Notes under the pieces: model-generated | Database searches by the model: none | The model's input: the letters and a program-made list of their open reading frames with translations, nothing else | What the model was told of the DNA's origin: nothing | IMG/VR virus record: IMGVR_UViG_3300022220_000001 | Span: 1-60,954 of that record | Source of the DNA: a virus | Lineage: Duplodnaviria > Caudoviricetes | Length of the DNA stretch: 60,954 nucleotides | Strand: one strand, 5' to 3' | Shown here: positions 4,456 through 25,888 of the stretch, piece after piece | How positions within the stretch are numbered: position 1 is the stretch's first letter | Layout of the letters: every line of letters starts with the position of its first letter | Translations under genes and position numbers: made by a program

Positions 4456-5591
4456 TGGCAGCTAACCCATATTTTAGATACGAAACCAGTTCGTTAAATT
4501 TAAAAACAGGCATGAGAGCACCAAATTTTCCTGTACAATCTGGCTTATCACTACACACTTACGCCACTGAAAAGTATTCTCATACAACAACAACTCGGGA
4601 TTATGGCACCACAAGTTTTACATATGTGATAAAAGGCGTAAAACGAGACGATTTAGAAATAATAAAATCCTTTTGGGAAACAACTCTTGATGAAGGATAC
4701 TACGACTTTACGGTGATAGACAATAAGAATCGAATGTTATTTGAAGCGTCTTGGAATAATTGGCGAAAAGTATGGTACAAAAGGCGAGGCGGTGTATATG
4801 ATGTTTACGTGGATATTGAGTCAACGGTACCGTGGACACTCCCCGTAATAGCGGCCTATCCAATGGTTGCAAATAATCTTAATGACCACACACTACAAGG
4901 AAACGACTTAACATTAACAGATGCCGTACTAGCTAGCGATACCGACCCTAACGTAATAAGGAGTAATGGGTATTGTTTGCGTATGGATGGCGATAGTTTA
5001 GTGTCACAGCTTACCGGGGCAACAGGGACAACGAGTTTTAGTAGTAAATCCGGCGGATCATTGTCTATATTCTGCCAGTTCAGAAGAGCTAACACCATAT
5101 CGCACAGACTAAGGTTAGCCCAAATCACAAACGAGGCTGAAACAATAGATTTTACTGTTTGGCAATCATCTTCACAATTCGGAGGACAGATTAACAACGA
5201 ACCCGTAGGTGTTGCTCAAGATGTATATCACACAATAGTTTCAGATACTTGGTACGATTGTGCAATAACATATGATTCACACAATAGCACACCATATGTG
5301 TATATTACACCATCACAAATAACAACATTCACAAATTTCCTCTATGGTTCAACAGACATAACGGATCATATAGGATCATATATGGAAGTACCAGGCGCAC
5401 CAAACACAGGAGGATACACCAAAATTAACTTGTTGAAAGAAGATGCAGATGGTGGACTTGTAGAAGACGGAGCTTATGGATATGTCCAAAACGTTTTCTT
5501 TTTTGACGGTCACATGACACCAATGATGTTTAATATGATGCGAAGATTATGCTTTTTGTGGGATAATGCAACAACATCGGAGCCAAAATAA
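4455..5591 (+). CDS. Minor tail protein with C-terminal LamG/concanavalin-like domain
   Basis: N-terminal distal-tail-like segment; C-terminal LSIFCQF...DTWYDCAITYD...YVYI...VQNVFFFD pattern typical of LamG folds. Confidence 0.55.
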   Translation: MAANPYFRYETSSLNLKTGMRAPNFPVQSGLSLHTYATEKYSHTTTTRDYGTTSFTYVIKGVKRDDLEIIKSFWETTLDEGYYDFTVIDNKNRMLFEASWNNWRKVWYKRRGGVYDVYVDIESTVPWTLPVIAAYPMVANNLNDHTLQGNDLTLTDAVLASDTDPNVIRSNGYCLRMDGDSLVSQLTGATGTTSFSSKSGGSLSIFCQFRRANTISHRLRLAQITNEAETIDFTVWQSSSQFGGQINNEPVGVAQDVYHTIVSDTWYDCAITYDSHNSTPYVYITPSQITTFTNFLYGSTDITDHIGSYMEVPGAPNTGGYTKINLLKEDADGGLVEDGAYGYVQNVFFFDGHMTPMMFNMMRRLCFLWDNATTSEPK

Positions 5592-8500
5592 TGAGTACAA
5601 GAGCGAACAAAGCGTATGTCGCAAAGATAGAACTGAAAAACAACACATACTATGTAACTGATAGGCCAGATATAACTCTTGATAGCCAAACATATAGTAA
5701 TCTTGTGAGATACTGGGGTGACGTGAGTTTTAATAGCGACACGGAAAATGGTATATTCCAAATAGGATCATTTGATATAGAGCTTATCAACGGTGAGGAG
5801 ATGTTGCAAGACGGGTATGTGTTCAGCCCAACCGATGTGTGGAATAATTATAAATGCACTGTTAAGTTATATACAGACGGCGATGTTGAGTTTGATAGTT
5901 GTGAGCCAATAATATCAGGAAAAATAAAAAACTATAACATTAATAATGATATTATAAGTTTTTCGATAGAGCAAATTGATGATAGAGACGACATCCTACT
6001 TCCTGCTATAGTTTGTACTGATCAATCAGACTTGTCTGACGCTGAAGCTATTGCGGTGCCAGTGTCAACCCCAGATTATGATACTATAACATTTGCTACT
6101 GGCGATGCATCAATATTTGATACCGGGGAGCTTGTAGTTTTGACGTTTGAGACCTATTACCCTGAAGTTGCGGGAAAGCCTTACCAGATTGCGAGGATAA
6201 AGAGTATTGATGCTACTAACACAACTATAATATTATGGGAAACATATGAATACATATTCCGTGTAGTATCTGTAGAAAAGGCATTTCGTTATATACCGGA
6301 AAAAGCGATAAATAAAACAATTCCGATACAAATAGGCAGCCTCACCGATAGGGAAAATGGTGAATTTGGGAAAACGGTTACAATTAGTGAAAAGGCTGGA
6401 AGAAAAATAATAGCAGCCGATTATATTGAATTAAATTATTTGATAGAAATTGGAGTTTGGGAAAATTTATTAAAACGTTTTTTCGCGGCAAGGGGTGGAT
6501 CCGCAAGTAATATTATATATGAATACGGCGTAAACACAAGGAATAATTTTGTGCATTTCGTGTCAACAGCAGGTACAACATTATCAACAACAACTAGTGC
6601 TATAAGCGGAGTCCAGGAAATATTTATGGCAAATCCAGAAAATATCCCTTGGGTTGACGAGGATGATGTAACTGACACTGAAAATACAGACCTAATAACT
6701 AATAATGTGATTGTTATAGATAGGGAATTGTTCTTAATCTTAAAAAAACCATCTGCTGGAAACGGTGTTCTTGTTGAAAGAGGCTATGATGATACAGAGG
6801 TCGTTGAACATTCAGCGGGTAGCACCGTGTACTTGGTAGAAAAATTTGCAGCAAAGAATCTATTATCCTTTAGAGAATTTTTTTACCCAAAGTCAGTGTC
6901 TACAATGTATCAATATGGCATGTCCTTAGAAAAATATTTATCACCGACAAACTATGGAATGACAGGGAACATAGAAAATATTATAAAAAACGATCTTACA
7001 AGTGTAATTTTATATATGGATCATTACCATGACCTTAGAGCCACAGGCCCACAAGGGATGTATTTTATATTCGATTTGCAATTTAACAAGATAGTTCTAG
7101 ACGCAACTGTCTCAGCGTGCTATGTAGGGTTAGATGCAGACTTTACGTATGCTAGGGCAACCTCATCTGCACAAGTATTTGATAGTTTTATAATAAGCGT
7201 TGCAGATGTGAACGAATATATTAGTTATACTGATGTGATTACTTACGAAACACATACAACTGGGCATGCTATCTTACAACTAATCAGACACACTGGTGAT
7301 TCTGGGAGCAGCACCATAAACGGGGTTTCATCAGCAAAAGAAGATCCTGAAACGTTAGCGTCTTATGATCCAACCTATGACGATATATATGATGCAAACA
7401 TAACCAAAACAAATTGTGATTGGCCTCCAGATATGGACGGTTTTGGGCTATCGAGGCTAAAAGACATTAATAAAAGATGGCGTTTTTATTTTATGGAGGT
7501 AACAGACCTACTAGCGACGGCGCCAGGGAACGGTTGTGTGGCAACAATAAGAAAGATAGGGCTTTGGGTTGACTTTCTTGTGGATTTTACAAAAGAGAAT
7601 GTTATCGCCCCATTACAAGGCAGAAAGATAACGGAGGATGTTGCAAGTATCACAGGAGACACTGAAGGAGATATATGTATTTACCCACAAAGTGTGTGTG
7701 CGCAAATACTGACACAAGAGCTAGGGTATGAAGTGGATGACTTTGGTGATGGATGGTCTCTCTTACAAATCGGTGGATGGACAACCAGAACTACACCAAA
7801 TAGTAATGCTTATTATGAGGTGACATTTGGGAACAATCTTTTCGTAGCAGTTGGTACTGGTGCAAGTAGTACAGTTATGACTTCATCAGATGGTATAACA
7901 TGGACAGCAAGAACATCAAGTTTTTCTTGTAGTAGTGTGACATATGGGGGTGGTCTTTTCGTATTGGTTACTACTGGTGGGGGGGTAGCTACTTCGCCAG
8001 ATGGTATAACATGGACATCCAGAACTACACCGACTAGTAATAGTTTAAATAGTGTGACATATGGGAATAATCTTTACGTAGCAGTTGGAGCAACCTCTAG
8101 TTTAGATGGTGTTATAACTTCGCCAGATGGCATAACGTGGACATCTAGAACCACACCAAATAATAATAGTCTGAATGGTGTGACATATGGGAATAATCTT
8201 TTTGTAGCAGTTAGTGGCTCCTCTAGTTTAAGTGGTGTTATAACTTCGCCAGATGGCATAACGTGGACATCTAGAACCACACCAAATAATAACACTTATA
8301 CCAGTGTTGTATACGGAAATAATCTTTTCGTAGCAGTTAGTGCGAGTGGTAGCCTAGATAGGGCTATGACTTCGCCAGATGGTATAACGTGGACAGCCAG
8401 AACTACGCCGACTAATAATGCTTATACTCACGTCACGTATGGAAACAGTCTCTATGTATCGGTCAGCTCAACTGGTAGTTCAGACAAGGTTATGACTTCA

Positions 8501-9343
8501 ACAGATGGTATAACGTGGGAGACTATGGTTACTCCCAATAATAATTATACCAGTGTTACATATGGGAATGGTACTTTCGTAGCAGTAAGTTTTACTGGTG
8601 GTTTAGATAGAGCTATGACGCTATCAACAATGAGTCAAAATGCTTGTGCATTCTCCTATGGCATAGAAGACGAAAGAAAAAAAGGTTTTGAGTTTGTCTC
8701 AGAAATAGCAAATCACTATAACTATTTACTATTCAAGACTTACAACAATAAATTATCTATAGTTAACCTATACAATATATACGATGACACAGATACCGGG
8801 AATAAAATAGAAATAGAAGAAATATTATTCCTGAAAGAATCCGGACAAAGAAGAATATCTATATATCAAACCGGCAATGATTTAATATATAATGATGTCA
8901 TTATTAAATACAACCGGAATAATAGCACAGATGAATATCAATCTGTATATACCCTACCCGACTCTTTCACCTTGGCTAAGTCAGGTATAACACTAAAGCA
9001 AGCAAGAAGTGATTATTATGGTGGCAAAAAACGAACGTTGACCATAGAAAGCCCGTATATATATGATGAAGAACGAGCGCAAGAACTAGCGGAAACAAAA
9101 GCTAACGAATTCGCTGAGGTACATTTTTATATTGAACTATATATCGATTACGATCACTACACAGATATAAATAGTCTAACAGATCAGTACCAAATAGGAG
9201 ATATAGTATATCTTAACGGTGATTCTAATGGAATTACATTTGATTCTGACAGATTATTCTACATAAAAGACACTGTTATTACAGATAATGGCAGAGAAAT
9301 ATGTCTCCACATCAAATCAGTAGACCCGGTATCTGAATTCTAA
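5591..9343 (+). CDS. Tail tip / host-specificity protein with internal 7-repeat beta-propeller insert
   Basis: 1250 aa, last tail gene; hub-like N- and C-terminal parts (YNDVIIKY, IGDIVYL); seven ~42-aa VTYGNNLFVAV...TSPDGITW repeats. Confidence 0.75.
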   Translation: MSTRANKAYVAKIELKNNTYYVTDRPDITLDSQTYSNLVRYWGDVSFNSDTENGIFQIGSFDIELINGEEMLQDGYVFSPTDVWNNYKCTVKLYTDGDVEFDSCEPIISGKIKNYNINNDIISFSIEQIDDRDDILLPAIVCTDQSDLSDAEAIAVPVSTPDYDTITFATGDASIFDTGELVVLTFETYYPEVAGKPYQIARIKSIDATNTTIILWETYEYIFRVVSVEKAFRYIPEKAINKTIPIQIGSLTDRENGEFGKTVTISEKAGRKIIAADYIELNYLIEIGVWENLLKRFFAARGGSASNIIYEYGVNTRNNFVHFVSTAGTTLSTTTSAISGVQEIFMANPENIPWVDEDDVTDTENTDLITNNVIVIDRELFLILKKPSAGNGVLVERGYDDTEVVEHSAGSTVYLVEKFAAKNLLSFREFFYPKSVSTMYQYGMSLEKYLSPTNYGMTGNIENIIKNDLTSVILYMDHYHDLRATGPQGMYFIFDLQFNKIVLDATVSACYVGLDADFTYARATSSAQVFDSFIISVADVNEYISYTDVITYETHTTGHAILQLIRHTGDSGSSTINGVSSAKEDPETLASYDPTYDDIYDANITKTNCDWPPDMDGFGLSRLKDINKRWRFYFMEVTDLLATAPGNGCVATIRKIGLWVDFLVDFTKENVIAPLQGRKITEDVASITGDTEGDICIYPQSVCAQILTQELGYEVDDFGDGWSLLQIGGWTTRTTPNSNAYYEVTFGNNLFVAVGTGASSTVMTSSDGITWTARTSSFSCSSVTYGGGLFVLVTTGGGVATSPDGITWTSRTTPTSNSLNSVTYGNNLYVAVGATSSLDGVITSPDGITWTSRTTPNNNSLNGVTYGNNLFVAVSGSSSLSGVITSPDGITWTSRTTPNNNTYTSVVYGNNLFVAVSASGSLDRAMTSPDGITWTARTTPTNNAYTHVTYGNSLYVSVSSTGSSDKVMTSTDGITWETMVTPNNNYTSVTYGNGTFVAVSFTGGLDRAMTLSTMSQNACAFSYGIEDERKKGFEFVSEIANHYNYLLFKTYNNKLSIVNLYNIYDDTDTGNKIEIEEILFLKESGQRRISIYQTGNDLIYNDVIIKYNRNNSTDEYQSVYTLPDSFTLAKSGITLKQARSDYYGGKKRTLTIESPYIYDEERAQELAETKANEFAEVHFYIELYIDYDHYTDINSLTDQYQIGDIVYLNGDSNGITFDSDRLFYIKDTVITDNGREICLHIKSVDPVSEF
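7778..8620 (+). repeat. Seven intragenic ~126-bp repeats (Asp-box/BNR-like propeller blades)
   Basis: Near-identical DNA at 8108-8166 and 8234-8292 (period 126); TSxDGITW motif six times. Confidence 0.9.
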
Positions 9344-10008: not shown

Positions 10009-10737
10009 ATGACTGATTTAGTAAAAAGCTCTGCAAAAAAAGCAAAAACCCATCAACGATATTATGTTATAATAGATGGTAAAAAGAAAAGGGTTCCTGG
10101 CACTACAACTATTACAGGTGTTATGGATAAGCCAGCGTTAGTCTACTGGGCGAATAATCTTGGTTTGGAGGGTATTAATGTAAGAGATTATGTCGATGAT
10201 CTGGCTAATGCTGGCACGTGTGCTCATTTGATGTGCGAATTAAATTGTCTTGGGTATGAAGAACCTGTTAGCCATGAAGACATGGGGCAATTTACCGGTG
10301 ATCAAATAAAATTAGCAAAAATAGGCTATGAAAAGTTTTTAAACTGGAAAAACAAAACAGGTTTTATAGCAACTAAAAATGAGGTACAACTAACTCACGA
10401 CAGATTATTGTATGGTGGCACAGTAGACATAGTAGGATATATCACTAAAGACTATGTGTTAAATAATGGTATTACATTGTATGCTAATACTAAATTACTG
10501 ATTGACCTCAAGACATCCAAAGCGTGTTATGGCGAACAGAAAACACAGGTATGCGCTTATGGGATGCTGTTAGAGCATAATAATATTAGCTATGATCATA
10601 TTATAATTCTTCGCATCGGAAGAAATGAGGAAGAGGGATTTGAAGATATATTTATTACGGAACAAGAAAAACTTAATCACCAAAAGCGGTTTAAGATTTG
10701 CCGTAATTTGTATGAGTTGAATAAATATTGTAAATAA
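10009..10737 (+). CDS. PD-(D/E)XK exonuclease (YqaJ/lambda-exo/Cas4-like)
   Basis: PGTTTI, GTCAH, GGTVD, IDLKTS and Q..AY motifs; AGGAGG RBS; adjacent to an ERF annealase. Confidence 0.8.
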   Translation: MTDLVKSSAKKAKTHQRYYVIIDGKKKRVPGTTTITGVMDKPALVYWANNLGLEGINVRDYVDDLANAGTCAHLMCELNCLGYEEPVSHEDMGQFTGDQIKLAKIGYEKFLNWKNKTGFIATKNEVQLTHDRLLYGGTVDIVGYITKDYVLNNGITLYANTKLLIDLKTSKACYGEQKTQVCAYGMLLEHNNISYDHIIILRIGRNEEEGFEDIFITEQEKLNHQKRFKICRNLYELNKYCK

Positions 10738-10768
10738 ATAGTATTATTAATTAACCAAGGAAAAAACT

Positions 10769-11671
10769 ATGCTACAAAATGAAGAACTCCAAGAAAATAG
10801 AACTGGAAGTATCAGCGGCGATGGTTATGAGTTTTCGCAAGAGGTTGATAAAATTATCCCAGCTTTTGTGAAAATGCAGGGGGAGCTGGAGCCTGCAAAA
10901 TTATTATCAAACAATCCTTTCTTTAATTCCAAGTATTCAGACTTAAATGAAGTTATGAGAGTTCTGAAAAAACCACTATCAGATAACGGATTTGCAGTTG
11001 CTTGGTTTGTTTCTATGATGCCATATGTTGATTGCCAATTAAAAGAACAGGAGCTTAAGCAGTTTAATGGTAGAAATGGTACGTATGAAAAATTAATTTG
11101 GACGGGGAAATGGAATAGTATACGAGTTAGAGAGATAAAAGTAACAACTCTACTCTTGCATACTTCAGGCCAATACATTAAAGCTTGGATTATATTAATT
11201 CCTAATGACAATGACAATCAGACAAAAGGTAAGTGTATTACGTATGGGAAACGATACTCAATAACTTCTTTGACAGGATTGTGTTCTGAAGAAGATAACG
11301 ACGGAAACCCAGAGCCAAAAAACAAATCATACGAAGGTAACAATAACCAGCTTCCACCACCAAAAAAAGAAGAAAAGCCCAAACAAAATAATACAGATAA
11401 TTACATTTGTGATGAAAAAGGAAACCGGAGGTATGATAAAAACAAACAAACATTGTTTGATAAATACCAAATTAAAAATACCTTGATAATAAATGCTCAA
11501 TGGAAAACAATGTTAGATTTGATCATGCAAAATTGTGGTGGTGATTCAAAAAAATTTACTTCGTGGCTCAAAGATGTATATAATGTAAAATTCTACGACA
11601 TAAAACAAAGCATGATTGCCGGAATAATGGAAACACTTACAAACAGTTCAGAACAAATATTTCTGGATTAG
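10769..11671 (+). CDS. erf: ERF-family single-strand annealing protein
   Basis: NPFFNSKYSDL, TLLLHTSGQ, GKCITYGKRYSI and EEDNDGN motifs characteristic of ERF. Confidence 0.85.
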   Translation: MLQNEELQENRTGSISGDGYEFSQEVDKIIPAFVKMQGELEPAKLLSNNPFFNSKYSDLNEVMRVLKKPLSDNGFAVAWFVSMMPYVDCQLKEQELKQFNGRNGTYEKLIWTGKWNSIRVREIKVTTLLLHTSGQYIKAWIILIPNDNDNQTKGKCITYGKRYSITSLTGLCSEEDNDGNPEPKNKSYEGNNNQLPPPKKEEKPKQNNTDNYICDEKGNRRYDKNKQTLFDKYQIKNTLIINAQWKTMLDLIMQNCGGDSKKFTSWLKDVYNVKFYDIKQSMIAGIMETLTNSSEQIFLD

Positions 11672-13996: not shown

Positions 13997-15340
13997 ATGA
14001 AAGTAAAGTCTTTAACTGTGCACAATATAGGTATTATAGCACACGAAGAAATTGTTTTAAATCAGCCACTAAACATTTTTTACGGTGAAATCGAATCAGG
14101 GAAAACAACACTTGCTATAACCAGCATAAAATTACTTTTTGGGGGTAAATTCCCTGAGAGTATTATACGGAAAGGTGAAAGTGAGGGATATGTTGAATTG
14201 GTGTTTGACAATGCCAGAATAAAAAGGTCATTCTATATTGACCGTTCTTCCATTACCCAGGCAAGGGCAATAGAATATTACCTGGATAACAACAAAGTTA
14301 GCAAACCTGTAGATGCTATTAAGAAGCTTTTAAATCCATTTCTACTTGACCAGGATTATTTGGTTAATATGTCCGTTATTGAACGGAAACAATACTTCAT
14401 TGATTTGTTTGATGTTGATACATCTGATTTGGATGAAGAGCTGTCAAGAGAGATTCAGAACGCAAAAGAAATTCGTTCGAGTATTAAAAATTATGGTGAG
14501 ATTGAAATTGTTCCTGTTGAAAAACCTGATATTGAGACTCTTAAGAAAGAAAAAGATGAAATTAATAATTATAACCAAACCATAAATAGTAATTATTTGT
14601 TAGCCCAAAGTAACGAAAATAAAAGTGTTGCGGATTATAATAATAATGTCGATGAACATAATAATATTATTGATACTTGCATTAAAGAATCTTCTAATTT
14701 AAAAAATGAAATTAAAAATCTTGAGGAGAAAATTGATATATTAAAAGCAAAATATGATAGTAATCAAAAATACCTTGAAGATCCTGAAAATAAAAAGAAA
14801 GAAAAAAAAGAACCAATACAAATAGAAAGGCCAGTATTAAAAGATAGTACTGAAATAGATGAAAAGATATCTAATGCAAAAGCTGATGAAATACGATATC
14901 AACAATATCAAGCAGCAATATTAAAACAACAGGAAAAAGAATATCATGTGAACCTTCTCAGAGAGAGCGAGGCTAACTCTGCACGTATAAAAAAAGAAAA
15001 AACCAACAAACTTTCCGAAATTTCTAAAAACATATCTATTCCAGGATTGGTCTTTGATCATAACGGAACAGCCATATACAACGATACACCTATGGATATG
15101 CTTTCCACTAGTCAGATAATGTCCCTTTCTTCCGAATGCGCAAATTTATACCCAAATGAGCTCGGTATAGCGTTACAGGATAAAGGGGAGTCTCTCGGAT
15201 CATCTATCTTTAAATATGTAGATAAAGCAAAGGAAAACGATTTAACTATTTTAGCAACTGTCGTATCGGAAAAACCTGCGGAAAATATTCCTGATGATGT
15301 TGGTGTTTTTATTATCAAGAAAGGTGTTATTGAAAAATGA
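13997..15340 (+). CDS. Short SbcC/Rad50/SMC-like ABC ATPase
   Basis: Walker A GEIESGKT, central coiled coil, signature-like LSTSQ, Walker B-like IALQD.GE. Confidence 0.75.
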   Translation: MKVKSLTVHNIGIIAHEEIVLNQPLNIFYGEIESGKTTLAITSIKLLFGGKFPESIIRKGESEGYVELVFDNARIKRSFYIDRSSITQARAIEYYLDNNKVSKPVDAIKKLLNPFLLDQDYLVNMSVIERKQYFIDLFDVDTSDLDEELSREIQNAKEIRSSIKNYGEIEIVPVEKPDIETLKKEKDEINNYNQTINSNYLLAQSNENKSVADYNNNVDEHNNIIDTCIKESSNLKNEIKNLEEKIDILKAKYDSNQKYLEDPENKKKEKKEPIQIERPVLKDSTEIDEKISNAKADEIRYQQYQAAILKQQEKEYHVNLLRESEANSARIKKEKTNKLSEISKNISIPGLVFDHNGTAIYNDTPMDMLSTSQIMSLSSECANLYPNELGIALQDKGESLGSSIFKYVDKAKENDLTILATVVSEKPAENIPDDVGVFIIKKGVIEK

Positions 15341-18319: not shown

Positions 18320-18625
18320 ATGCTGTTGATGAATAAAGACCAATACAAAATAATTCTGTCTGGGCCTGAGAACTGGAATAAATGGCGGGAAAAGAACCCA
18401 AATAGTATTATCGATCTCAGGGAAGCTAATCTCAGACATGCTAATCTCAGGGGCACTGATCTCAGGGGTGCTGATTTCAGGGGTGCTGATCTCAGGAAAG
18501 CTAAACTCAGGGAAGCTAATCTCAGACATGCTAATCTCAGGTATGCTAAACTCATGGAATTAGATCTCAGATATGCTGATCTCAGGGGTGCTATTCTTTG
18601 GAATGTAATTTGGGATAAAGAATGA
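18320..18625 (+). CDS. Pentapeptide repeat protein
   Basis: NWNKWR lead-in, then A(N/D)LR(E/G/H/Y) repeats encoded by 15-bp DNA repeats. Confidence 0.9.
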   Translation: MLLMNKDQYKIILSGPENWNKWREKNPNSIIDLREANLRHANLRGTDLRGADFRGADLRKAKLREANLRHANLRYAKLMELDLRYADLRGAILWNVIWDKE

Positions 18626-20370
18626 AACATTACAACGAATTTGATTTAACAGATACACTAACAGAGCTTCACCTTTCTTCCAGGAATGTAAGGAACCAAG
18701 TCCAATTGGATTACTGTCCGTTCTGCGAAGAATCCAGGGGTAAGAAGTCAGATCATTTTTCGTTTAACCGTGAGACAGGACAGTTTAAGTGCATAAAGTG
18801 TGAGGAAATAGGTAATCTAATTACTTTTCGTCGTCATATGGGATTAGATCCATTTCAGAAAGATGAATTCAAATTACCGGATCAAAACAGGGTGTCTAAG
18901 CTCCGGGAACAGCCAAAACAATACTACGAACAGTATGCGAAGTCAAGATGTATTAGTGCAGAAACGCTGGAAAAGTACGGTGTGGGTAGGTTTAATGATT
19001 CTAAGCTTGGTGCGTGTAGGACTTACCAGTACATAGATCTGGATGGTAAAATTGCCAATATCAAGTATGTCAACAAAAATAAGCAGATGAAAACGGAGTA
19101 TAAGGCAAGGAAAATCTATTACGGGTTACAATTTATTGATTTCAAAAAAGATTACCTACATGTAGTTTGCGGCGAAGATGATGTTCATGCGCTGATTGAT
19201 ATTGGTTTTGATAATATTGTGTCGCTTCCCTTTGGTGACAAAACCTATACTCCAGACATGGGTGATATAAATAAACGGTTTAAAACAATCTACCTCATGT
19301 TTGACCATGATAACTCAGGGCAAGAAGGGGCAAAAATGTTTGCTCACAAAGCTGGTGTTTGGAAGTGTATTAACGTTTTCCTTCCGTTTAATGATGCAAG
19401 GGAATGCTTGAAGTTTGGGGTGGAATTGTTTGGGTTAGAAAAGGCAAAGAGTGAAGGTAAACGGTTTGAGTACACACAAGAAGATACGTGTCGGCCTGGG
19501 CTAACATTCGAGGAAAGAAATAGCAGGTACATTGCCTCCCTGAATGCAGGGGATGGGTTAAAGTTCGGCTTTAAGTTGATTGACGATATTATTGGCGGCA
19601 TTCGGCCAGGCGAAGTTATTTCTGTTGTTGCTAACCCAGGAGCATATAAAACAACACTGCTCATGAATCTAATTATTAATTTAGCGAAGTCATTGTCTCA
19701 TGGTTTTGTAATGTTTTTTTCGCTTGAAATGGCTATTGAAAGCGAGTTTGAACGGGAGCTTGGAATAGTTACAGGAAAGACAAGAACGGACATTAAGCAT
19801 ATAAAAGACAATCCATACGCAATAAATACTATGACCGAAGAAGCAAGGCAAGGGTTAGAACAGATAATGGTGTCAGAAGAATCGTATATAAACTTAACAC
19901 AAATGAAAGAAATAATAAAGAAAACGGAAGATGTATATGGAGAACCATGCGTATTTGTCGCTGTGGACTACTCAGACTTTGTAGAATCGACTAAAAAGAT
20001 TTCAGAGTACGAAACTATCAAAGAAGTCGCAAATGGATTTAAGAGCCATCTCTGTCGCTCTGAGGGCATTCCTGGAATTATGCTATATCAAACCAACCGT
20101 GGAACCAAATCCGCAGATGAGGAAGTTACCGCAAGATCTGGGAAAGGTGGAACGCCTATAGAGGCAGGGTCGGATTTTCAGTTGGGGTTATGGAGGAAAG
20201 GGGAAGATGTTGTGGGTAGATTTACTAAACACAGGCGAGTTGATGATATGTGGAACGGTGTTATGTGGCCGTATTTTAAATGTGTTGTACCGTATCCTAA
20301 GACGTTTAGAATTACTGATATACACCAAATAGATGAAGCAGAGTTAAAACAAGAAAGTGAGGAATTCTAA
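18622..20370 (+). CDS. Bifunctional primase-helicase (T7 gp4/Twinkle-like: Zn ribbon + TOPRIM + DnaB-type helicase)
   Basis: CPFC...CIKC zinc ribbon; TOPRIM-like GEDD and FDHDNSGQ; helicase PGAYKTT, FFSLEM, VDY and Q.NR motifs. Confidence 0.85.
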   Translation: MKHYNEFDLTDTLTELHLSSRNVRNQVQLDYCPFCEESRGKKSDHFSFNRETGQFKCIKCEEIGNLITFRRHMGLDPFQKDEFKLPDQNRVSKLREQPKQYYEQYAKSRCISAETLEKYGVGRFNDSKLGACRTYQYIDLDGKIANIKYVNKNKQMKTEYKARKIYYGLQFIDFKKDYLHVVCGEDDVHALIDIGFDNIVSLPFGDKTYTPDMGDINKRFKTIYLMFDHDNSGQEGAKMFAHKAGVWKCINVFLPFNDARECLKFGVELFGLEKAKSEGKRFEYTQEDTCRPGLTFEERNSRYIASLNAGDGLKFGFKLIDDIIGGIRPGEVISVVANPGAYKTTLLMNLIINLAKSLSHGFVMFFSLEMAIESEFERELGIVTGKTRTDIKHIKDNPYAINTMTEEARQGLEQIMVSEESYINLTQMKEIIKKTEDVYGEPCVFVAVDYSDFVESTKKISEYETIKEVANGFKSHLCRSEGIPGIMLYQTNRGTKSADEEVTARSGKGGTPIEAGSDFQLGLWRKGEDVVGRFTKHRRVDDMWNGVMWPYFKCVVPYPKTFRITDIHQIDEAELKQESEEF

Positions 20371-20372
20371 TA

Positions 20373-20579
20373 ATGGATTTAAAAAACTGTCCATTTTGTG
20401 GTTTTGATGATATAGATGTAGTAACTTCACAGACAATGATTATTGATACAAGCCCAATACAATACAAGAGAGAGGCTTTTTGCAATGATTGTTTTTGTGC
20501 TGGCCCACCTAAAAATACACACAAAGAGGCTGTTGAGGCTTGGAACGAAAGAAGCGAATCAATCATAAATAATAATTAA
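20373..20579 (+). CDS. Lar-family restriction alleviation-like zinc protein
   Basis: LKNCPFCG...CNDC...EAVEAWNER. Confidence 0.75.
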   Translation: MDLKNCPFCGFDDIDVVTSQTMIIDTSPIQYKREAFCNDCFCAGPPKNTHKEAVEAWNERSESIINNN

Positions 20580-20589
20580 GGAGGAACAA

Positions 20590-20808
20590 GTGAAAAAGTA
20601 CAAAGAAAAAGATGTTGAAAGATTAATTGAAGCTGTTTTAGATCTAAGTTTAACCGTTATCCCAAAAGCAGTCGGTTACGGAACAATTACTGTTGAGTGT
20701 CCTGTATGCGGTGTAAGAAAATCAGATGATGGCGAAACTATCGAGGATTATCCTCACGATGAGGAATGTGGTTACATGGTTGCTATGAAAATGTATAAAG
20801 GAGAATAA
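20590..20808 (+). CDS. Hypothetical zinc-binding protein
   Basis: GGAGG RBS; CPVCG...H..EC. Confidence 0.6.
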   Translation: MKKYKEKDVERLIEAVLDLSLTVIPKAVGYGTITVECPVCGVRKSDDGETIEDYPHDEECGYMVAMKMYKGE

Positions 20809-20810
20809 AA

Positions 20811-21068
20811 ATGACAACTTGGAGAGAAGAAATAATTGAGGCGATGGGGAAGGAAGAAACTTTAGATGATGTTGAGTATATAACACTGTCGGAGAAAGAG
20901 TTGGATAGAGAATTTGATGACAATTATGGTTTGAAAGAAGGTGAACCGTTTTTGTTGTGGACAAAAAACAGAGTTTATTTTCCTGTTTGTTATGATGGAT
21001 CTGAATGGGTTGAATCTGTGCCAAGAAATCCATGTGAAGAAAAAAGAGAACATATTGGCGGTGGTTAA
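20811..21068 (+). CDS. Conserved phage hypothetical protein
   Basis: AGGAG RBS; EFD..YG..EG.PF..WT..RVYFP..YDGSEWV.SVPRNP...HIGGG. Confidence 0.7.
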   Translation: MTTWREEIIEAMGKEETLDDVEYITLSEKELDREFDDNYGLKEGEPFLLWTKNRVYFPVCYDGSEWVESVPRNPCEEKREHIGGG

Positions 21069-21115
21069 AATATGCTAATAAAATAAAAAACCGAACAAAC
21101 CAAGGAAAACAAATT

Positions 21116-21400
21116 ATGATAAAAAAATTAAAACTTCAGAACTTGTTTGATAATATTAGACAGCTATATAAAGATAGTTATGATGGATACTTAGCTGACA
21201 ATGCAATGAACTCCCAGAAATTATTATCAGAAGTCCACACTAAAATTACTAGTGAAGATTCTCGTTTACTTAAAAGTTTAATCCCCACACTCAAATCCTA
21301 TCATAAAAAAGGCATGTTACACCAGTTAGCAAATGACGATGAGTGTGATATTTGGTGGTCTCGGTACAGAAACATTCAAGTTGAGGATAATGAAAAATGA
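21116..21400 (+). CDS. Lamassu LmuA / ABC-three-component effector C-terminal domain only (no effector domain)
   Basis: C-terminal HKKGMLHQLAND...IWW motif typical of ABC-3C effector CTDs; only 94 aa; ATGA-coupled to a middle component; phage-type RBS. Confidence 0.7.
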   Translation: MIKKLKLQNLFDNIRQLYKDSYDGYLADNAMNSQKLLSEVHTKITSEDSRLLKSLIPTLKSYHKKGMLHQLANDDECDIWWSRYRNIQVEDNEK

Positions 21401-21906
21401 AATTACCTTTTTTAGATTCTGATAATGATTTGTACGTTAATATATGCTTAATTCTAATTATTATTGATACTTTAGGAAAAACCAGTCGAGGTGTATTAAA
21501 AGTAAACAATGGAAGACTACATATTTTTCTGTATTTGGTAAAGAATCCTACATTCTTAAACAAGATGTTTGTAATGTTTAATAAAGATACTGTGTTACTC
21601 CATGAACGTGATGCTTTCTCAGTTACTTCAATTTCCCCCAATATTGATCCACTGTTTGATAGAGAAACACTTAAATCTTTATTGAGTATTTCAGTTGTAA
21701 AAAAATTAGTAAAGGTTGTTTATAAAAAAGATGATGGTTTTTTCTATGTTATAAGTGAAAAAGGGCAATTTGTAGTTGAAGAATTAAAAGATGAATACTT
21801 TCAAGAAATTATACTATTATGTAAAAAATTGAAAAGCATATTAAGTATTAGCGAATCTCAATTAAACCAAAAATTGAATCAATTAATTCGAAGGGAATCA
21901 AATTAA
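21397..21906 (+). CDS. lmuC: Lamassu LmuC / ABC-three-component middle component
   Basis: 169 aa; LPF...RLHIFLYLVKNP...Y.ISEKG winged-helix-like pattern; sits between the CTD and the SMC-like ATPase. Confidence 0.7.
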   Translation: MKLPFLDSDNDLYVNICLILIIIDTLGKTSRGVLKVNNGRLHIFLYLVKNPTFLNKMFVMFNKDTVLLHERDAFSVTSISPNIDPLFDRETLKSLLSISVVKKLVKVVYKKDDGFFYVISEKGQFVVEELKDEYFQEIILLCKKLKSILSISESQLNQKLNQLIRRESN

Positions 21907-23592
21907 ATGCCATGCAGTATCTTAATTAATCAGCTAATTGTTGTTGGTATAAGAAAAAATTATAAAGTATCATTTAATCCTGGTGTCAATATTATATATG
22001 GAGATTCCGCTACTGGTAAATCAAGTATTCTAAATTTGATTGATTATTTATTAGGAGCCAAACATTTTGATTTATACCCTGAAATTGAATCATCTGGTAG
22101 ATATGCGGTTCTTGATGTTACTTTAAATGAAGATAGGTATTCAATAAAGCGTGATATATTTGACTCATTAAAACCAATTGAGGTATTTCCTTGTTCATTT
22201 GACGAAATTGAACAATATGCAGTTAAAAAGTATCTGCCGACCTTTCAAACTAATAGCAGTTATCAAGACATAGAGTTTTTCTCAGAATTTTTGTTAGATG
22301 CTTTAAACCTAACAAATTTAAAAATTAAGCAAGCTCCAACAAAAGATGATTCAAAACTTGTACGTTTAAGTTTTCGTGATATAATTAATTATTGTTATAT
22401 CGATCAGGATGATCTTGGAAGTAAAAAGTTTTTACGCCCAGACAACTACGCACTTCAAACGAAAAACACTGAAGTTTTTAAATACATTTTTAATGCATTA
22501 GACAGCCAAATTTCAGAATTAGAACAAAATATCTCAGACAAAACTCAACATAAAAATAATCTTGACAAAAAATTCATGGCTGTATCAGAATTTCTGCGAG
22601 AATCAGAATTTGGAAGTCTTTCAAATTTAGATAATGAACTAAAAAAGACGGATGTTAGAATTACAACCTTAAAAGAACAAATATCAGTGTTAAATTCTAA
22701 AGTTGTTGCTGACAAAGAAGTTTATAGGGCAATTAAATCTACTATAACAGAAATAATTCGTGACAAAAAAGTATTACAAAACAAAATTGAAGAAAGTGAA
22801 ATTAGAATTGAAAGATTTACAAGATTAAAAAATGATTACTTAAGTGATATTACAAAATTTAAAGCATCGCTTGAAGCTAGAAATGTTATAGGTGAGATAC
22901 CTGAAGAAATTTCTTTATGCCCTGTTTGTGACAACACTCTTAAATTAGAATCAGCAAAAAAGATATTTGAAATAACAACAACTGACAAAGTGAAGCAAGA
23001 ATTGAATTCACTAAAAAGGCGAGTAAAAGACACTGTCCAAATGATTAATGATAGTAAACAACAATGGGAGTTAGATAATTCAGCTTTAAAAATATTAGAT
23101 ACAAAAGAACAAGAGACTAGAATATTAATTGATCAAAATACTAAGGATTTAATATCCCCTTACTTGGCTGAGCGAGATATGTATGTGAACCAACTTGGAG
23201 AACTAAAACAAAAACGAATAGAACTATTCTCTAGATTGAAGATCAGAAACCAACACAGCCTTCTGATAGAAACAATGAAATCACTTGAAAGCAGCATAAA
23301 GCAGCTAAAGGAAAGATTACAAATTTTAAAAGATAAAGTCCCTTCAATGAGTAATGTTTTATCCAATTTAGCAGATAATTTATATAGTTATCTCACCAAT
23401 GTAAAAATTAAAGACCCTTCAAATATTAGTATTAGTAATAAATTTTTACCTGTTGTGCGTGGTATAGAATATGGAAATATAACATCTGGTGGTTGTATGG
23501 AACAAGAGTTAGGGGATTATAGTGATTACGAGCCGGAAGACTACGAAGGCTTAAACTGGAAAAAATACCCAGAGAATGGATACTCAGAATGA
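21907..23592 (+). CDS. lmuB: Lamassu LmuB / ABC-3C SMC-like ATPase, truncated at the signature motif and fused to a phage peptide
   Basis: GVNIIYGDSATGKSS Walker A, RLSFRD, YIDQ Q-loop, coiled coil with CPVC hook, ITSGG signature (aa 527-529). No Walker B/D/H loops; the last 32 aa are phage-derived. Confidence 0.8.
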   Translation: MPCSILINQLIVVGIRKNYKVSFNPGVNIIYGDSATGKSSILNLIDYLLGAKHFDLYPEIESSGRYAVLDVTLNEDRYSIKRDIFDSLKPIEVFPCSFDEIEQYAVKKYLPTFQTNSSYQDIEFFSEFLLDALNLTNLKIKQAPTKDDSKLVRLSFRDIINYCYIDQDDLGSKKFLRPDNYALQTKNTEVFKYIFNALDSQISELEQNISDKTQHKNNLDKKFMAVSEFLRESEFGSLSNLDNELKKTDVRITTLKEQISVLNSKVVADKEVYRAIKSTITEIIRDKKVLQNKIEESEIRIERFTRLKNDYLSDITKFKASLEARNVIGEIPEEISLCPVCDNTLKLESAKKIFEITTTDKVKQELNSLKRRVKDTVQMINDSKQQWELDNSALKILDTKEQETRILIDQNTKDLISPYLAERDMYVNQLGELKQKRIELFSRLKIRNQHSLLIETMKSLESSIKQLKERLQILKDKVPSMSNVLSNLADNLYSYLTNVKIKDPSNISISNKFLPVVRGIEYGNITSGGCMEQELGDYSDYEPEDYEGLNWKKYPENGYSE

Positions 23593-23593
23593 A
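23555..23593 (+). repeat. 39-bp direct repeat, copy 1
   Basis: ACTGGAAAAAATACCCAGAGAATGGATACTCAGAATGAA is identical at 24074-24112. Confidence 0.95.
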
Positions 23594-23703
23594 TAAAAAA
23601 TACAAAATTTTATCAGAGTACAGAGAACACGGAAAATCCTACTACCGGTTGGCGAGAAGTTGTCGACCGTAGAGCTTTGAGGAAGATTAAGGAGAATATT
23701 TGA

Positions 23704-24111
23704 ATGAAAGTAGACAAAATGGTCACAATAGAAGAGGTAGAAAAGGTTTGGGGTAATGCTGATTTTGGCCCAAACATATCTAAAATGGAAGTTGTTAAAT
23801 ACGGACTTTTAAAATGTGCCGGACAATGGTACCAGGGGTACACATCTAAAAGCATCCTGTACGAATTAGGTTTAATAACCAAGAAATATACTCTTTCTAA
23901 AAGAGGTGCGAGGTGCCTATATGAATTCTTTAAACAAAAGTGTGAATGTTGTGGATGCGAAGAAGCCGCCGATTATATAGACAGTATGGATTATTATATG
24001 TGCGAAAACTGTGTTAATGACGATATTACCTGAGGTTATTCAGGCCAAACCCCAGAAGATTTCGTACCCTTAGACTGGAAAAAATACCCAGAGAATGGAT
24101 ACTCAGAATGA
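23704..24111 (+). pseudogene. Hypothetical protein with in-frame TGA at 24031-24033; the frame continues to 24111
   Basis: After the TGA the frame reads GYSGQTPEDFVPLDWKKYPENGYSE*, homologous to the LmuB fusion tail. Confidence 0.55.
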
Positions 24112-24112
24112 A
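24074..24112 (+). repeat. 39-bp direct repeat, copy 2
   Basis: Identical to 23555-23593. Confidence 0.95.
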
Positions 24113-24338
24113 ACTCTTTGAGAGAAATAACTTTAAATCAAAAAAACAACTTCGGTTCGAAAACGATCATAAAAGATTAATTCATGTTGTTAAAATGGCA
24201 TACAGGAAGCATAATTATGGCGATGACAGTATTGGATGGGGAGAGCTGAGCGAAGAGCTCTATACCACCCTTGCCGATGTCATTGGGTATGAAGAATTGG
24301 GACAACTACAGAATATGAAGTATTTTAATAACAAATAA
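24108..24338 (+). CDS. Hypothetical protein (paralogue of 24353-24592)
   Basis: Shares RLIHVVKMAYRKH...ELY.TL.DVIG.EE with the next ORF. Confidence 0.7.
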   Translation: MKLFERNNFKSKKQLRFENDHKRLIHVVKMAYRKHNYGDDSIGWGELSEELYTTLADVIGYEELGQLQNMKYFNNK

Positions 24339-24352
24339 TCCAAAGGAACAAA

Positions 24353-24592
24353 ATGAGACACATAGAAAAGCCAAGCTTAAAATCAAAACAACAACTTAAA
24401 TTAGAAAAAAACTATGAGAGATTAATTCATGTTGTTAAGATGGCATACCGGAAGCACAGCCTGGATGACAATAGTATCTGGAAGGAGTCCCTTAACTACG
24501 AGCTCTATAATACACTTGTCGATGTCATCGGTGAGGAGGAGGTACGTAAACTACAACAATTAGAGTATTTCAATAATAATTCAAAGGAGTAA
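24353..24592 (+). CDS. Hypothetical protein (paralogue of 24108-24338)
   Basis: Tandem duplicate; AAGGA RBS. Confidence 0.7.
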   Translation: MRHIEKPSLKSKQQLKLEKNYERLIHVVKMAYRKHSLDDNSIWKESLNYELYNTLVDVIGEEEVRKLQQLEYFNNNSKE

Positions 24593-24599
24593 CTAACCA

Positions 24600-24809
24600 A
24601 TGAACAAATTAATTAAAAAAACAGAGCAGACTAAGGAAAAACCATTTCCTAAGCTGATGAAAAGTAAAAAAGGTCAATATGTGTATTTCCGTGAAGAAGG
24701 AAAAGGGGTGCAGTTATTAGGAGAGTATATAGACTATTGTGACACACTTTGGAATATGCATTGTTTCGAGGACACAGACGACCAAATACTTTTAAACTGC
24801 AAAGAATAA
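24600..24809 (+). CDS. Hypothetical protein
   Basis: AAGGAG RBS; FPKLMKS motif. Confidence 0.6.
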   Translation: MNKLIKKTEQTKEKPFPKLMKSKKGQYVYFREEGKGVQLLGEYIDYCDTLWNMHCFEDTDDQILLNCKE

Positions 24810-24867
24810 CAAAACACAAAATCGCGCTACTATGCTGAATTGTCATAAACAACCAAGGAGAAAAAAC

Positions 24868-25074
24868 ATGCGGAAAAGATGTAATATGTATAAAAAATGT
24901 ACAGCAAGAATTTGTAAACACTACCATCATCATCAATTTAAAAGCGATTGCGAAGATAAGTGTGATCGTTTTGGAAAAGATAAAATTGTGCCAAAATGCA
25001 TCGATGCGAAAGAGCACATATCAAGAGGTATTCCTAATATAGCAACTTACGAAAGGCGGGTGTTTTGTGGGTAA
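24868..25074 (+). CDS. Cys/His-rich hypothetical protein
   Basis: AAGGAG RBS supports ATG 24868. Confidence 0.5.
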   Translation: MRKRCNMYKKCTARICKHYHHHQFKSDCEDKCDRFGKDKIVPKCIDAKEHISRGIPNIATYERRVFCG

Positions 25075-25450
25075 TTGCGGTTGTGTATATGTAGACACAA
25101 GTACTAATAATAGTTGTTTAAGGCAGAAATTAATAACTGCCAGAAAAGAGTGTGATTGTTGTGAGTGTGGTGAAAAAATACCAATAGGTACACAATATGA
25201 AGATTATGTCGGGATATGTGAAGGAGAAATGTTTTGGTGTAAGACCTGTTTGGATTGTCTAAGTATTAGAAAGTCGTTCTTTTGTGATGGCTTTGAGTTT
25301 GAAGGAATGATTGAGCGTCTCGAAGAACATATTATCGAAATGGGTGGTGATATTTCATCAGACTGTATTACTACGCTCACAAAAGGTGCGAAAGGTATGG
25401 TATGTGATATGATTGAGGAATATTGGGAAGGGTATGATGATGGAGAATAA
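25067..25450 (+). CDS. Cys-rich zinc-binding phage protein
   Basis: ARKE..CCECGEKIPIG..YE...KTCLDC motif. Confidence 0.7.
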   Translation: MGNCGCVYVDTSTNNSCLRQKLITARKECDCCECGEKIPIGTQYEDYVGICEGEMFWCKTCLDCLSIRKSFFCDGFEFEGMIERLEEHIIEMGGDISSDCITTLTKGAKGMVCDMIEEYWEGYDDGE

Positions 25451-25888
25451 ATGAAATATCCAAAACAAAAGTGGTTAGACAAAAAGTCAAACAAACCTAA
25501 TAGAAAAAAACTTATACAGAAAACATCTGTTTTGTGGAGTCGGATAATAAAAACTCATGGTAGGTGTGCTATATGTAGCTCAATATCAAGTGTAGATGCC
25601 CATCATATTGTGCGGAAAGGAAAAGCTATCCATCCAGGGTGGTTTCTTCTTGAAAACGGTATCCCACTATGCGTGGATTGTCATAGAGACGGTATCCATT
25701 CGATGCATTATCCTACTACAAGAGTTTTCCAGAAAAAAATAAATACCTGGTTAAATAAAAAAGACCTCACTTACGAGGTCTTATATTCCATGTGTCATAC
25801 TACCCAACGTATGGATATTTTTACTATACAGGATATTTACTCAGCATTGAGAATTGTTGCCTCGCAGTTGGGGCAAGCTTCACCATAG
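25451..25888 (+). CDS. NinG-like / HNH endonuclease-family protein
   Basis: CAIC...DAHH...LENGIPLCVDCH...H. Confidence 0.75.
   Translation: MKYPKQKWLDKKSNKPNRKKLIQKTSVLWSRIIKTHGRCAICSSISSVDAHHIVRKGKAIHPGWFLLENGIPLCVDCHRDGIHSMHYPTTRVFQKKINTWLNKKDLTYEVLYSMCHTTQRMDIFTIQDIYSALRIVASQLGQASP

Follow-up and report, generated by a model that had tools for sequence, protein, structure and literature searches.

A truncated Lamassu operon in a phage genome

The virus record IMGVR_UViG_3300022220_000001, whose 60,954 bp were analysed as one stretch of DNA (hereafter the window), is a complete record with direct terminal repeats (DTR) that carries all long open reading frames (ORFs) of the phage on the plus strand. 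Three coupled plus-strand ORFs with homology to the defence system Lamassu lie between two small phage genes, of which one ends at position 21068 and the other starts at 23589. They are ORF1 (21116-21400), ORF2 (21397-21906) and ORF3 (21907-23592). ORF1 and ORF2 overlap by four nucleotides (ATGA) and ORF2 and ORF3 abut; gene order, overlap and abutment are identical in all 29 bacterial operons that were extracted from 50 fetched loci. A preliminary description of the stretch had already proposed three coupled ORFs in the order lmuA-lmuC-lmuB and about 2.4 kb free of stops and frameshifts. Both points are borne out, the former by PADLOC, Pfam and the coordinates, and the latter by a count of zero stops or frameshifts within the cassette.

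Judged by these family assignments, the cassette stems from a short, lipase-type Lamassu operon (LmuA-CTD8/LmuC-MC4/LmuB, with CTD for C-terminal domain), of which it comprises 2.38 kb. In families, gene order and overlaps it resembles the short lipase-type operons of Sedimenticola (L054), Zhongshania (L034), Shewanella (L035) and Psychromonas (L037), and the identities to such gammaproteobacterial systems amount to 64-74% for LmuB, 49-58% for LmuC (eight bacterial proteins of equal length) and 54-71% for the CTD (eight bacterial LmuA proteins). Unlike those operons, the phage copy lacks residues 1 to ~318 of LmuA and residues ~530-660 of LmuB, and it possesses a phage start, a phage tail and a phage genome around it. 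The missing LmuA and LmuB pieces were also sought elsewhere in the phage and are not encoded there. The feature is a Lamassu-derived fragment and not a functional Lamassu, and, as the effector is missing along with half of the ATPase, the cassette itself would not be expected to protect against phages or plasmids.

The middle gene is the complete one. As in Lamassu operons in general, an LmuC stands between the lmuA and lmuB parts, and with 169 amino acids (aa) ORF2 is of full length, matching the LmuC profile of PADLOC (PDLC03869) at positions 4-167 of 168 (expectation value, E, 2e-38) and the middle component family MC4 of Pfam over its entire length (1-133 of 133), in agreement with the earlier statement that it is intact.

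ORF1 (94 aa) corresponds to the C-terminal part of LmuA (PADLOC PDLC03851, positions 251-331 of 343, E 3e-23; Pfam CTD8, positions 47-126 of 127), that is, to the last ~91 of ~410 residues. Its alignment to the homologues starts at its own residue 3 or 4, which equals homologue residue ~319, and it shares 9 of 9 invariant and 12 of 12 nearly invariant columns of alignment A3. In the LmuA homologues an N-terminal alpha/beta-hydrolase domain (DUF676, lipase-like) is joined to CTD8 at ~276-399, and the LmuA profile also matches a 'putative lipase' in the PDB (7x2p, E 2e-9); ORF1 contains no DUF676 or lipase-like domain. Lipase is listed as an effector type of short Lamassu systems in the classification given by one structural report (PMC12663957). 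In an AlphaFold2 (AF2) model of the Sedimenticola LmuA (mean predicted local distance difference test score, pLDDT, 74.5), the cut point falls into the loop between helices 294-311 and 317-343, and ORF1 would keep the last three of the five predicted CTD helices, the first two being absent. The preliminary description had taken ORF1 for the CTD of an effector without its nuclease or protease domain. The restriction to CTD8 stands, but with three of five helices it is not the whole CTD, and the missing effector is, by homology, lipase-like instead of a nuclease or protease.

The start of ORF1 carries a signal of the phage type. The motif ACCAAGGA (21099-21106, plus strand) lies 9 nucleotides (nt) before the ORF1 ATG. 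This 8-mer occurs five times in the window against 1.75 expected, a number that 3 of 100 shuffles reach, and each of the four plus-strand copies is followed after 7-9 nt by a start codon, namely at 10769 (erf), 12454, 21116 and 24868. The claim that the ribosome-binding site of ORF1 resembles those of the phage itself hence holds for the 8-mer, which is enriched in the window, but not for a 9-mer with one mismatch allowed (18 found versus 17.2 expected). ORF1 begins at a phage-type ribosome-binding site and ATG.

LmuA homology in the leader upstream of this ATG (21068-21115), which would represent a decayed part of the gene, was considered and is not relied on here. Two tblastn alignments extended upstream of the ATG, and the ungapped LmuA profile score of 16 in-frame leader codons, at a placement chosen post hoc, ranked 5 of 121,814 windows and was reached by 0.025% of shuffles. 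HMMER gained nothing from the extension (118.1 versus 120.2 bits), and the leader also contains the phage start motif. If real, the homology would mean that an untranslated leader has decayed, and would thus speak for a certain age of the capture.

ORF3 (561 aa) is homologous to LmuB over residues 1-529 (21907-23493; PADLOC PDLC03862, positions 6-533 of 643, E 2.9e-162) and shows the features of an SMC/Rad50-like (structural maintenance of chromosomes) ABC (ATP-binding cassette) ATPase, as had been described before. In alignment A1, Walker A lies at residues 32-39 (22000-22023), the Q-loop glutamine at Q167, the CPVC hook at 338-341 (22918-22929) and the SGG signature at 527-529 (23485-23493), and G32-S39, Q167, C338-C341 and S527-G529 are invariant columns across 22 sequences. 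In an AF2 model, the coiled coils (helices 178-327 and 347-498) and the hook are predicted with confidence, and residues 511-561 have a pLDDT below 50. The LmuB homologues are collinear with ORF3 through SGG and then continue for ~130 residues (~530-660) with Walker B and D-loop, which are absent from ORF3, so that the ATPase head is incomplete. The natural ends of the full-length homologues (660 aa for LmuB, ~400-420 aa for LmuA) do not coincide with either breakpoint.

In place of the missing head half, ORF3 continues in frame into a 32-aa tail without LmuB homology (23494-23592 including the stop), which is acidic and aromatic and has a guanine-cytosine (GC) content of 41%. The stop codon overlaps the next ATG (ATGA at 23589-23592). 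The last 61 nt (23533-23593) are repeated on the plus strand at 24052-24112 with 89% identity, the final 39 nt being identical, and this repeat marks the tail as phage sequence, as the preliminary description had surmised. The second copy follows in frame after the TGA of the gene at 23704-24033, comprises 26 codons and closes in an ATGA at the start of the gene at 24108; it may represent a leftover C-terminus, an extension made by read-through or a start region conserved for the gene that follows. A search for the tail motif in other phages with a degenerate 9-residue pattern matched nine IMG/VR contigs, which were discarded as chance matches, as all nine share a single near-identical sequence, which sits in a frame of 16 codons between unrelated flanks.

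Distribution and potential donor

In a collection of 5.8 billion proteins, the best non-self LmuB among 613 family matches shows 74% aa identity. The top matches are 660-661 aa long and come from marine gammaproteobacteria (Sedimenticola, Zhongshania, Shewanella, Psychromonas, Aeromonas and Vibrio). A scan of genome contigs returned nothing with the single protein and 50 loci with alignment A1. In plasmids the best match has 41% identity, and in the phage collection neither DNA nor protein searches revealed a relative with the cassette. IMG/VR gave no match with the single protein and one distant match with alignment A1, a complete operon on a viral contig (L084; 412, 165 and 656 aa). A near-identical host operon, which would have spoken for mere carry-over, is hence not found in the searched collections, and the expectation that the same trimmed cassette would turn up in related phages was not confirmed either.

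A quick maximum-likelihood tree, the careful search being unfinished, places the phage LmuB inside a clade of 20 rows with a Shimodaira-Hasegawa-like approximate likelihood ratio test (SH-aLRT) support of 97. The piece stems from an unsampled, gammaproteobacterium-like donor. As no near-identical donor was found, a very recent capture needs such an unsampled donor, and this seems not implausible, given that many family members are equally isolated.

The idea of a stand-alone family of CTD8 decoys was pursued and rejected, as the short proteins that were looked up lie on short contigs or in a bacterial genome. A search for CTD8 proteins of similar length found eight including that of the phage, with the other seven on contigs of 760-8047 bp and one labelled partial. 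An exhaustive search yielded 38 representatives, 28 of 396-968 aa and 10 of 117-291 aa. Among the six short ones that were looked up, four (P0130, P0131, P0155, P0163) lie on contigs of 591-1671 bp and one (P0129) on 1342 bp, and the sixth (P0159) belongs to a cluster with a 117-aa protein of Acinetobacter, which is encoded on a 226-kb contig. The longest representative (P0132, 968 aa) matches ORF1 residues 39-69 in 17 separate stretches and looks like a repeat protein of CTD8-like segments.

Degenerate Lamassu operons also occur in bacteria. In an Alteromonadaceae metagenome-assembled genome (MAG; L040, 5001-6293) LmuB is truncated after about residue 431, and in a Methylococcales MAG (L059, 4992-6967) it is split into 257 and 289 aa. 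These truncated or split remnants, like the stand-alone 117-aa CTD-like match in Acinetobacter, are comparable to the phage cassette. In contrast to them, being chromosomal and without phage expression signals, the phage cassette has ORFs that are all intact and coupled.

Genomic context

The cassette is set among replication and accessory genes (Erf, replication initiator, primase-helicase and, further on, an HNH endonuclease and the small terminase subunit) and occupies a variable accessory region downstream of the primase-helicase. A Lar-like restriction-alleviation gene (20373-20579, plus strand; PF14354, 31.4 bits versus a cut-off of 28.6, E 2.3e-7) ends 537 nt upstream of ORF1. The small ORF that comes next after it (20590-20808) is cysteine-rich too.

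The sole relative found is a metagenome contig (L094), whose helicase has 81% aa identity. It has the helicase, part of the initiator and a pentapeptide-repeat ORF in common with the phage, together with two weak small-ORF matches upstream of its helicase. Downstream of the helicase it carries a wholly different set, namely an N6/N4 DNA methylase, a pentapeptide-repeat protein and an ASCH protein. Since the same position holds different accessory genes in L094, the slot is a site of turnover of accessory and counter-defence genes, and this comparison marks the region as one in which accessory genes are replaced fast and where counter-defence genes would gather. L094 lacks every gene that flanks the cassette, so that an empty site cannot be read from it. 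A tyrosine integrase was searched for in the phage and none was found, which indicates that the phage is probably not a resident prophage.

A possible anti-Lamassu decoy

The solved Lamassu complexes of Vibrio cholerae (DdmABC/LmuACB) and Salmonella enterica (LmuACB), which are of the Cap4-CTD7-MC3 type, contain a dimer of the SMC-like LmuB, which has folded coiled coils and a zinc hook and, together with LmuC, cages the CTD of LmuA; they provide the mechanistic frame for the cassette. According to the structural reports (PMC12663957; bioRxiv 10.1101/2025.03.14.643221), the LmuA CTD, LmuC and the hook-proximal coiled coils of LmuB form the core of the LmuA1B2C1 complex, and the N-terminal effector of LmuA makes few or no contacts in it. 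The same sources describe activation as the liberation of LmuA and its CTD-mediated oligomerisation, with overlapping CTD surfaces for caging and oligomerising. The authors of the Salmonella LmuACB structure preprint further predicted that phages could encode decoys that sequester liberated LmuA (bioRxiv 10.1101/2025.03.14.643221). Unlike these complexes, the family of the cassette has other CTD and MC subfamilies and a lipase-like effector instead of the Cap4 nuclease. As these subfamilies differ and a sequence search found no CTD8 structure, we can only infer how the described interfaces map onto ORF1. The LmuB profile also matches PDB entry 9hqu ('DUF3732 domain-containing protein', E 2.4e-9), which probably represents a Lamassu LmuB.

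Set against this frame, the parts that are kept in the phage are those of the cage, and the parts that are lost are those for sensing, for the motor (the segment with Walker B and D-loop) and for killing (the lipase-like effector). The earlier proposal that both cuts preserve the interaction surfaces hence applies to the caging core, but not to the two CTD helices that are gone. From our point of view, the three products could act together as an anti-Lamassu decoy, a reading to which we assign a probability of roughly 40% and whose positive basis is context and mechanism. It is supported by the intact and coupled ORFs, the phage-type start and the absence of a plus-strand terminator-like site from 20272 to 25630, which make the cassette expressible, by the Lar-like neighbour and the variable slot, as well as by the fact that both junctions are in frame, for which the chance under random breakpoints is about 1 in 9. 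If this reading, at the odds just given, is right, the cassette would be the first natural anti-Lamassu device, in which the non-catalytic core of the host's Lamassu has been put under phage signals to serve as a dead cage and cap. It would then correspond to the decoy foreseen by the Salmonella preprint.

As to its origin, the simplest and most likely history would be that a Lamassu piece took the place of a small phage gene's body in a single event, with the start signal and the last 32 codons of that gene being kept. As both coiled-coil arms and the zinc hook are retained, the headless LmuB could still dimerise and, together with LmuC, might rebuild the hook-proximal cage for the C-terminal domain of LmuA, which would then be a cage without DNA sensing and ATP cycling. 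Given the published Lamassu structures, three routes of interference are mechanistically plausible and would not exclude each other, namely that (i) the dead cage recaptures host LmuA that has been set free on activation; (ii) the CTD fragment caps the LmuA oligomer that is needed for the effector to fire; or (iii) the truncated subunit combines with newly made host LmuB into dead mixed dimers. By any of these routes, abortive infection would be stopped in hosts with a cognate CTD8-MC4 Lamassu.

There is a precedent for such a strategy in another defence system, as AcrIB3 and AcrIB4, which are viral homologues of type I-B Cas subunits, exert their inhibition by joining a complex that is thereby defective (bioRxiv 10.1101/2023.06.24.545427). 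Like these, the cassette consists of copies of defence subunits on a mobile element that have lost their function, is borne by a phage among accessory and counter-defence genes and combines homology to the putative target subunits with the loss of the catalytic parts; inhibition is in its case a proposal. In contrast, AcrIB3 and AcrIB4 are single genes directed at a different system, experimentally validated and recurrent in many elements.

Our literature search, in which supplementary tables of predicted candidates were not covered, found no natural Lamassu inhibitor in print, and a 2024 preprint names Lamassu among the systems for which 'no known anti-defenses exist'. Structural work points to the step at which LmuA is set free and oligomerises as the vulnerable one, for which the cassette offers a concrete and clonable three-gene candidate. 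If the decoy reading were true, counter-defence by defective homologues would extend from CRISPR-Cas to SMC-based immunity and, beyond a single subunit, to the co-option of a whole sub-complex. If it fails, the cassette would still be a clean case of host defence DNA in a phage of the virulent type soon after capture. The cassette is thus a clear candidate for a bench test and not a demonstrated system.

Several observations weigh against the decoy reading from the side of mechanism. With two of its five CTD helices missing, ORF1 may not fold alone, and the orphan head half of ORF3 is modelled at low confidence in parts and has no C-terminal half to pair with. Preassembled host complexes may not swap subunits within one lytic cycle, and a cognate Lamassu in the phage host is an assumption. 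In addition, the solved structures belong to the CTD7-MC3 and not to the CTD8-MC4 subfamily. A complex prediction for ORF1, ORF2 and two copies of ORF3 residues 195-500, made without controls, gave 0.01 for ORF1 as partner against a mark of 0.32 and counts neither way.

Alternative explanations

The main competitor of the decoy reading is a recent neutral capture, which we consider almost as probable as the decoy and which likewise falls short of even odds. In this scenario, illegitimate recombination would have inserted host Lamassu DNA in place of a small phage gene's body, the products would be useless or mildly costly, and the ORFs would be open since the time for decay has been too short. 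The layout itself needs no selection, as a contiguous fragment that reaches from lmuA to lmuB automatically includes the whole of lmuC, and fragments with the effector may be too toxic to be observed. Furthermore, the left cut lies inside the CTD and not at a domain border, and Lamassu also decays in bacteria, as the truncated and the split LmuB described above exemplify.

The substitution pattern and the composition fit this scenario and weigh against the decoy reading. For each of the homologues, synonymous divergence (dS) either exceeds 2 or could not be computed, and this saturation makes selection after the capture unmeasurable; a phage-specific signal of selection is not seen. Over columns 1-529, the phage LmuB deviates at 1 of the 102 columns with a conservation of 97% or higher and at 4 of the 167 with one of 90% or higher, with medians of 0 and 3, respectively, for 112 bacterial LmuB proteins. 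Walker A and Q-loop, although part of a dead ATPase, are untouched, which indicates a short residence time. When homologues with an LmuB identity of 60% or more are compared, identity to the phage amounts to 55-58% in LmuC and 65-71% in the CTD, and equally distant bacterial pairs show 55 ± 7.5% and 72 ± 5.6%, so that the divergence is proportional in the same manner. The end branch of the phage LmuB in the quick tree (0.30, neighbours 0.17-0.77) displays no acceleration. With a GC content of 28.5% and a third-position GC content (GC3) of 20.1%, the cassette is lower than any of the 34 phage genes it was compared with, whose minima are 31.5% and 24.6%, and the composition steps are sharp at both junctions.

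In sum, the phage copy looks like an ordinary bacterial Lamassu that has been cut at two places, and it is a singleton, as no other phage or contig in the searched collections carries the trimmed cassette. On recurrence and purifying selection after capture, by which a counter-defence gene could be recognised, the cassette offers a single occurrence, a saturated dS and a pattern like that of the bacterial copies. The unchanged residues and the foreign GC3 argue that the truncation is young. Its youth removes the argument that open frames prove selection; it is no argument against function.

What speaks against a neutral capture is that no donor above 74% aa identity was found among the 613 family matches, that an in-frame start with a phage-type ribosome-binding site and an in-frame tail would have to coincide at the odds given above, that phages lose useless DNA fast and the 2.4 kb make up 4% of the genome, and that the slot is otherwise occupied by genes of the counter-defence type. 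Overall, the decoy proposed in the preliminary description withstood the checks that were run on it, but nothing in the substitution pattern marks function, and none of the tests could tell a function apart from neutral capture in recent times.

A further possibility, which we regard as improbable, is that the cassette is the eroded remnant of a complete phage-borne Lamassu that was once used against competing elements and then lost both ends by deletion. Complete Lamassu on viral contigs does exist, as the IMG/VR match shows, and the PHROGs database holds full-length families as well as half-length LmuB families (phrog_21162 and phrog_18263). However, this would take two independent deletions that both kept the frame, one of which would have had to hit a phage start signal exactly, and the composition shows no amelioration. 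Moreover, with no integrase found, a resident prophage, of which such a system would be the usual cargo, is improbable.

Still a little less probable is a use as a scaffold that is unrelated to the host Lamassu, for instance as a structural or DNA-associated factor whose tail recruits phage partners. In its favour, the tail is a repeated phage module with 39 identical nt at its end, and the phage has another AAA_23 ATPase (13997-15340). Against it stand the lack of a precedent, the incomplete head and the predicted disorder of the tail, and the identical 39 nt may serve merely as the start region of the next gene.

Lastly, the record is a metagenome assembly that is seen in a single run, and contigs rather than raw reads were compared. 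One public DNA run, maybe the source of the record, contains the stretch, which gives support at the level of contigs and not of reads. A 5073-nt contig from a separate assembly of this likely source run covers 20700-23584 and thereby both junctions, with zero differing letters and no loose ends. Contig depths over the region are 25.5, 25.5 and 24.2, and the contigs break at the 39-nt repeat only. An assembly chimera of phage and bacterial reads is hence very unlikely, all the more as both junctions are in frame.

Further observations

Promoter-like sites are not enriched in the window (48 found versus 40.2 ± 5.8 expected), nor are terminator-like sites (4 versus 4.8 ± 2.3), of which none lies on the plus strand between 20272 and 25630. 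No public RNA run contains the stretch. A 1250-aa ORF at 5591-9343 has no PHROG match at E ≤ 0.001.

The second ABC/SMC-like ATPase of the phage (13997-15340; AAA_23, phrog_1499) is encoded near the gene for the Erf recombinase, and ORF3 matches phrog_1499 weakly (E 4.8e-5). Downstream of the cassette, the genes at 24108-24338 and 24353-24592, which have no Pfam or PHROG match, are tandem paralogues with 76% identity over 108 nt (24104-24211 versus 24349-24456). The gene for the HNH endonuclease (25451-25888) lies about 1.9 kb downstream of the cassette; local gene exchange can be promoted by homing endonucleases.

In the phage, the pentapeptide-repeat ORF (18320-18625, 101 aa) precedes the helicase, and in L094 a pentapeptide-repeat protein of 292 aa (10535-11413) is encoded downstream of the helicase beside the N6/N4 DNA methylase. 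Both may represent counter-defence genes that act as DNA mimics.

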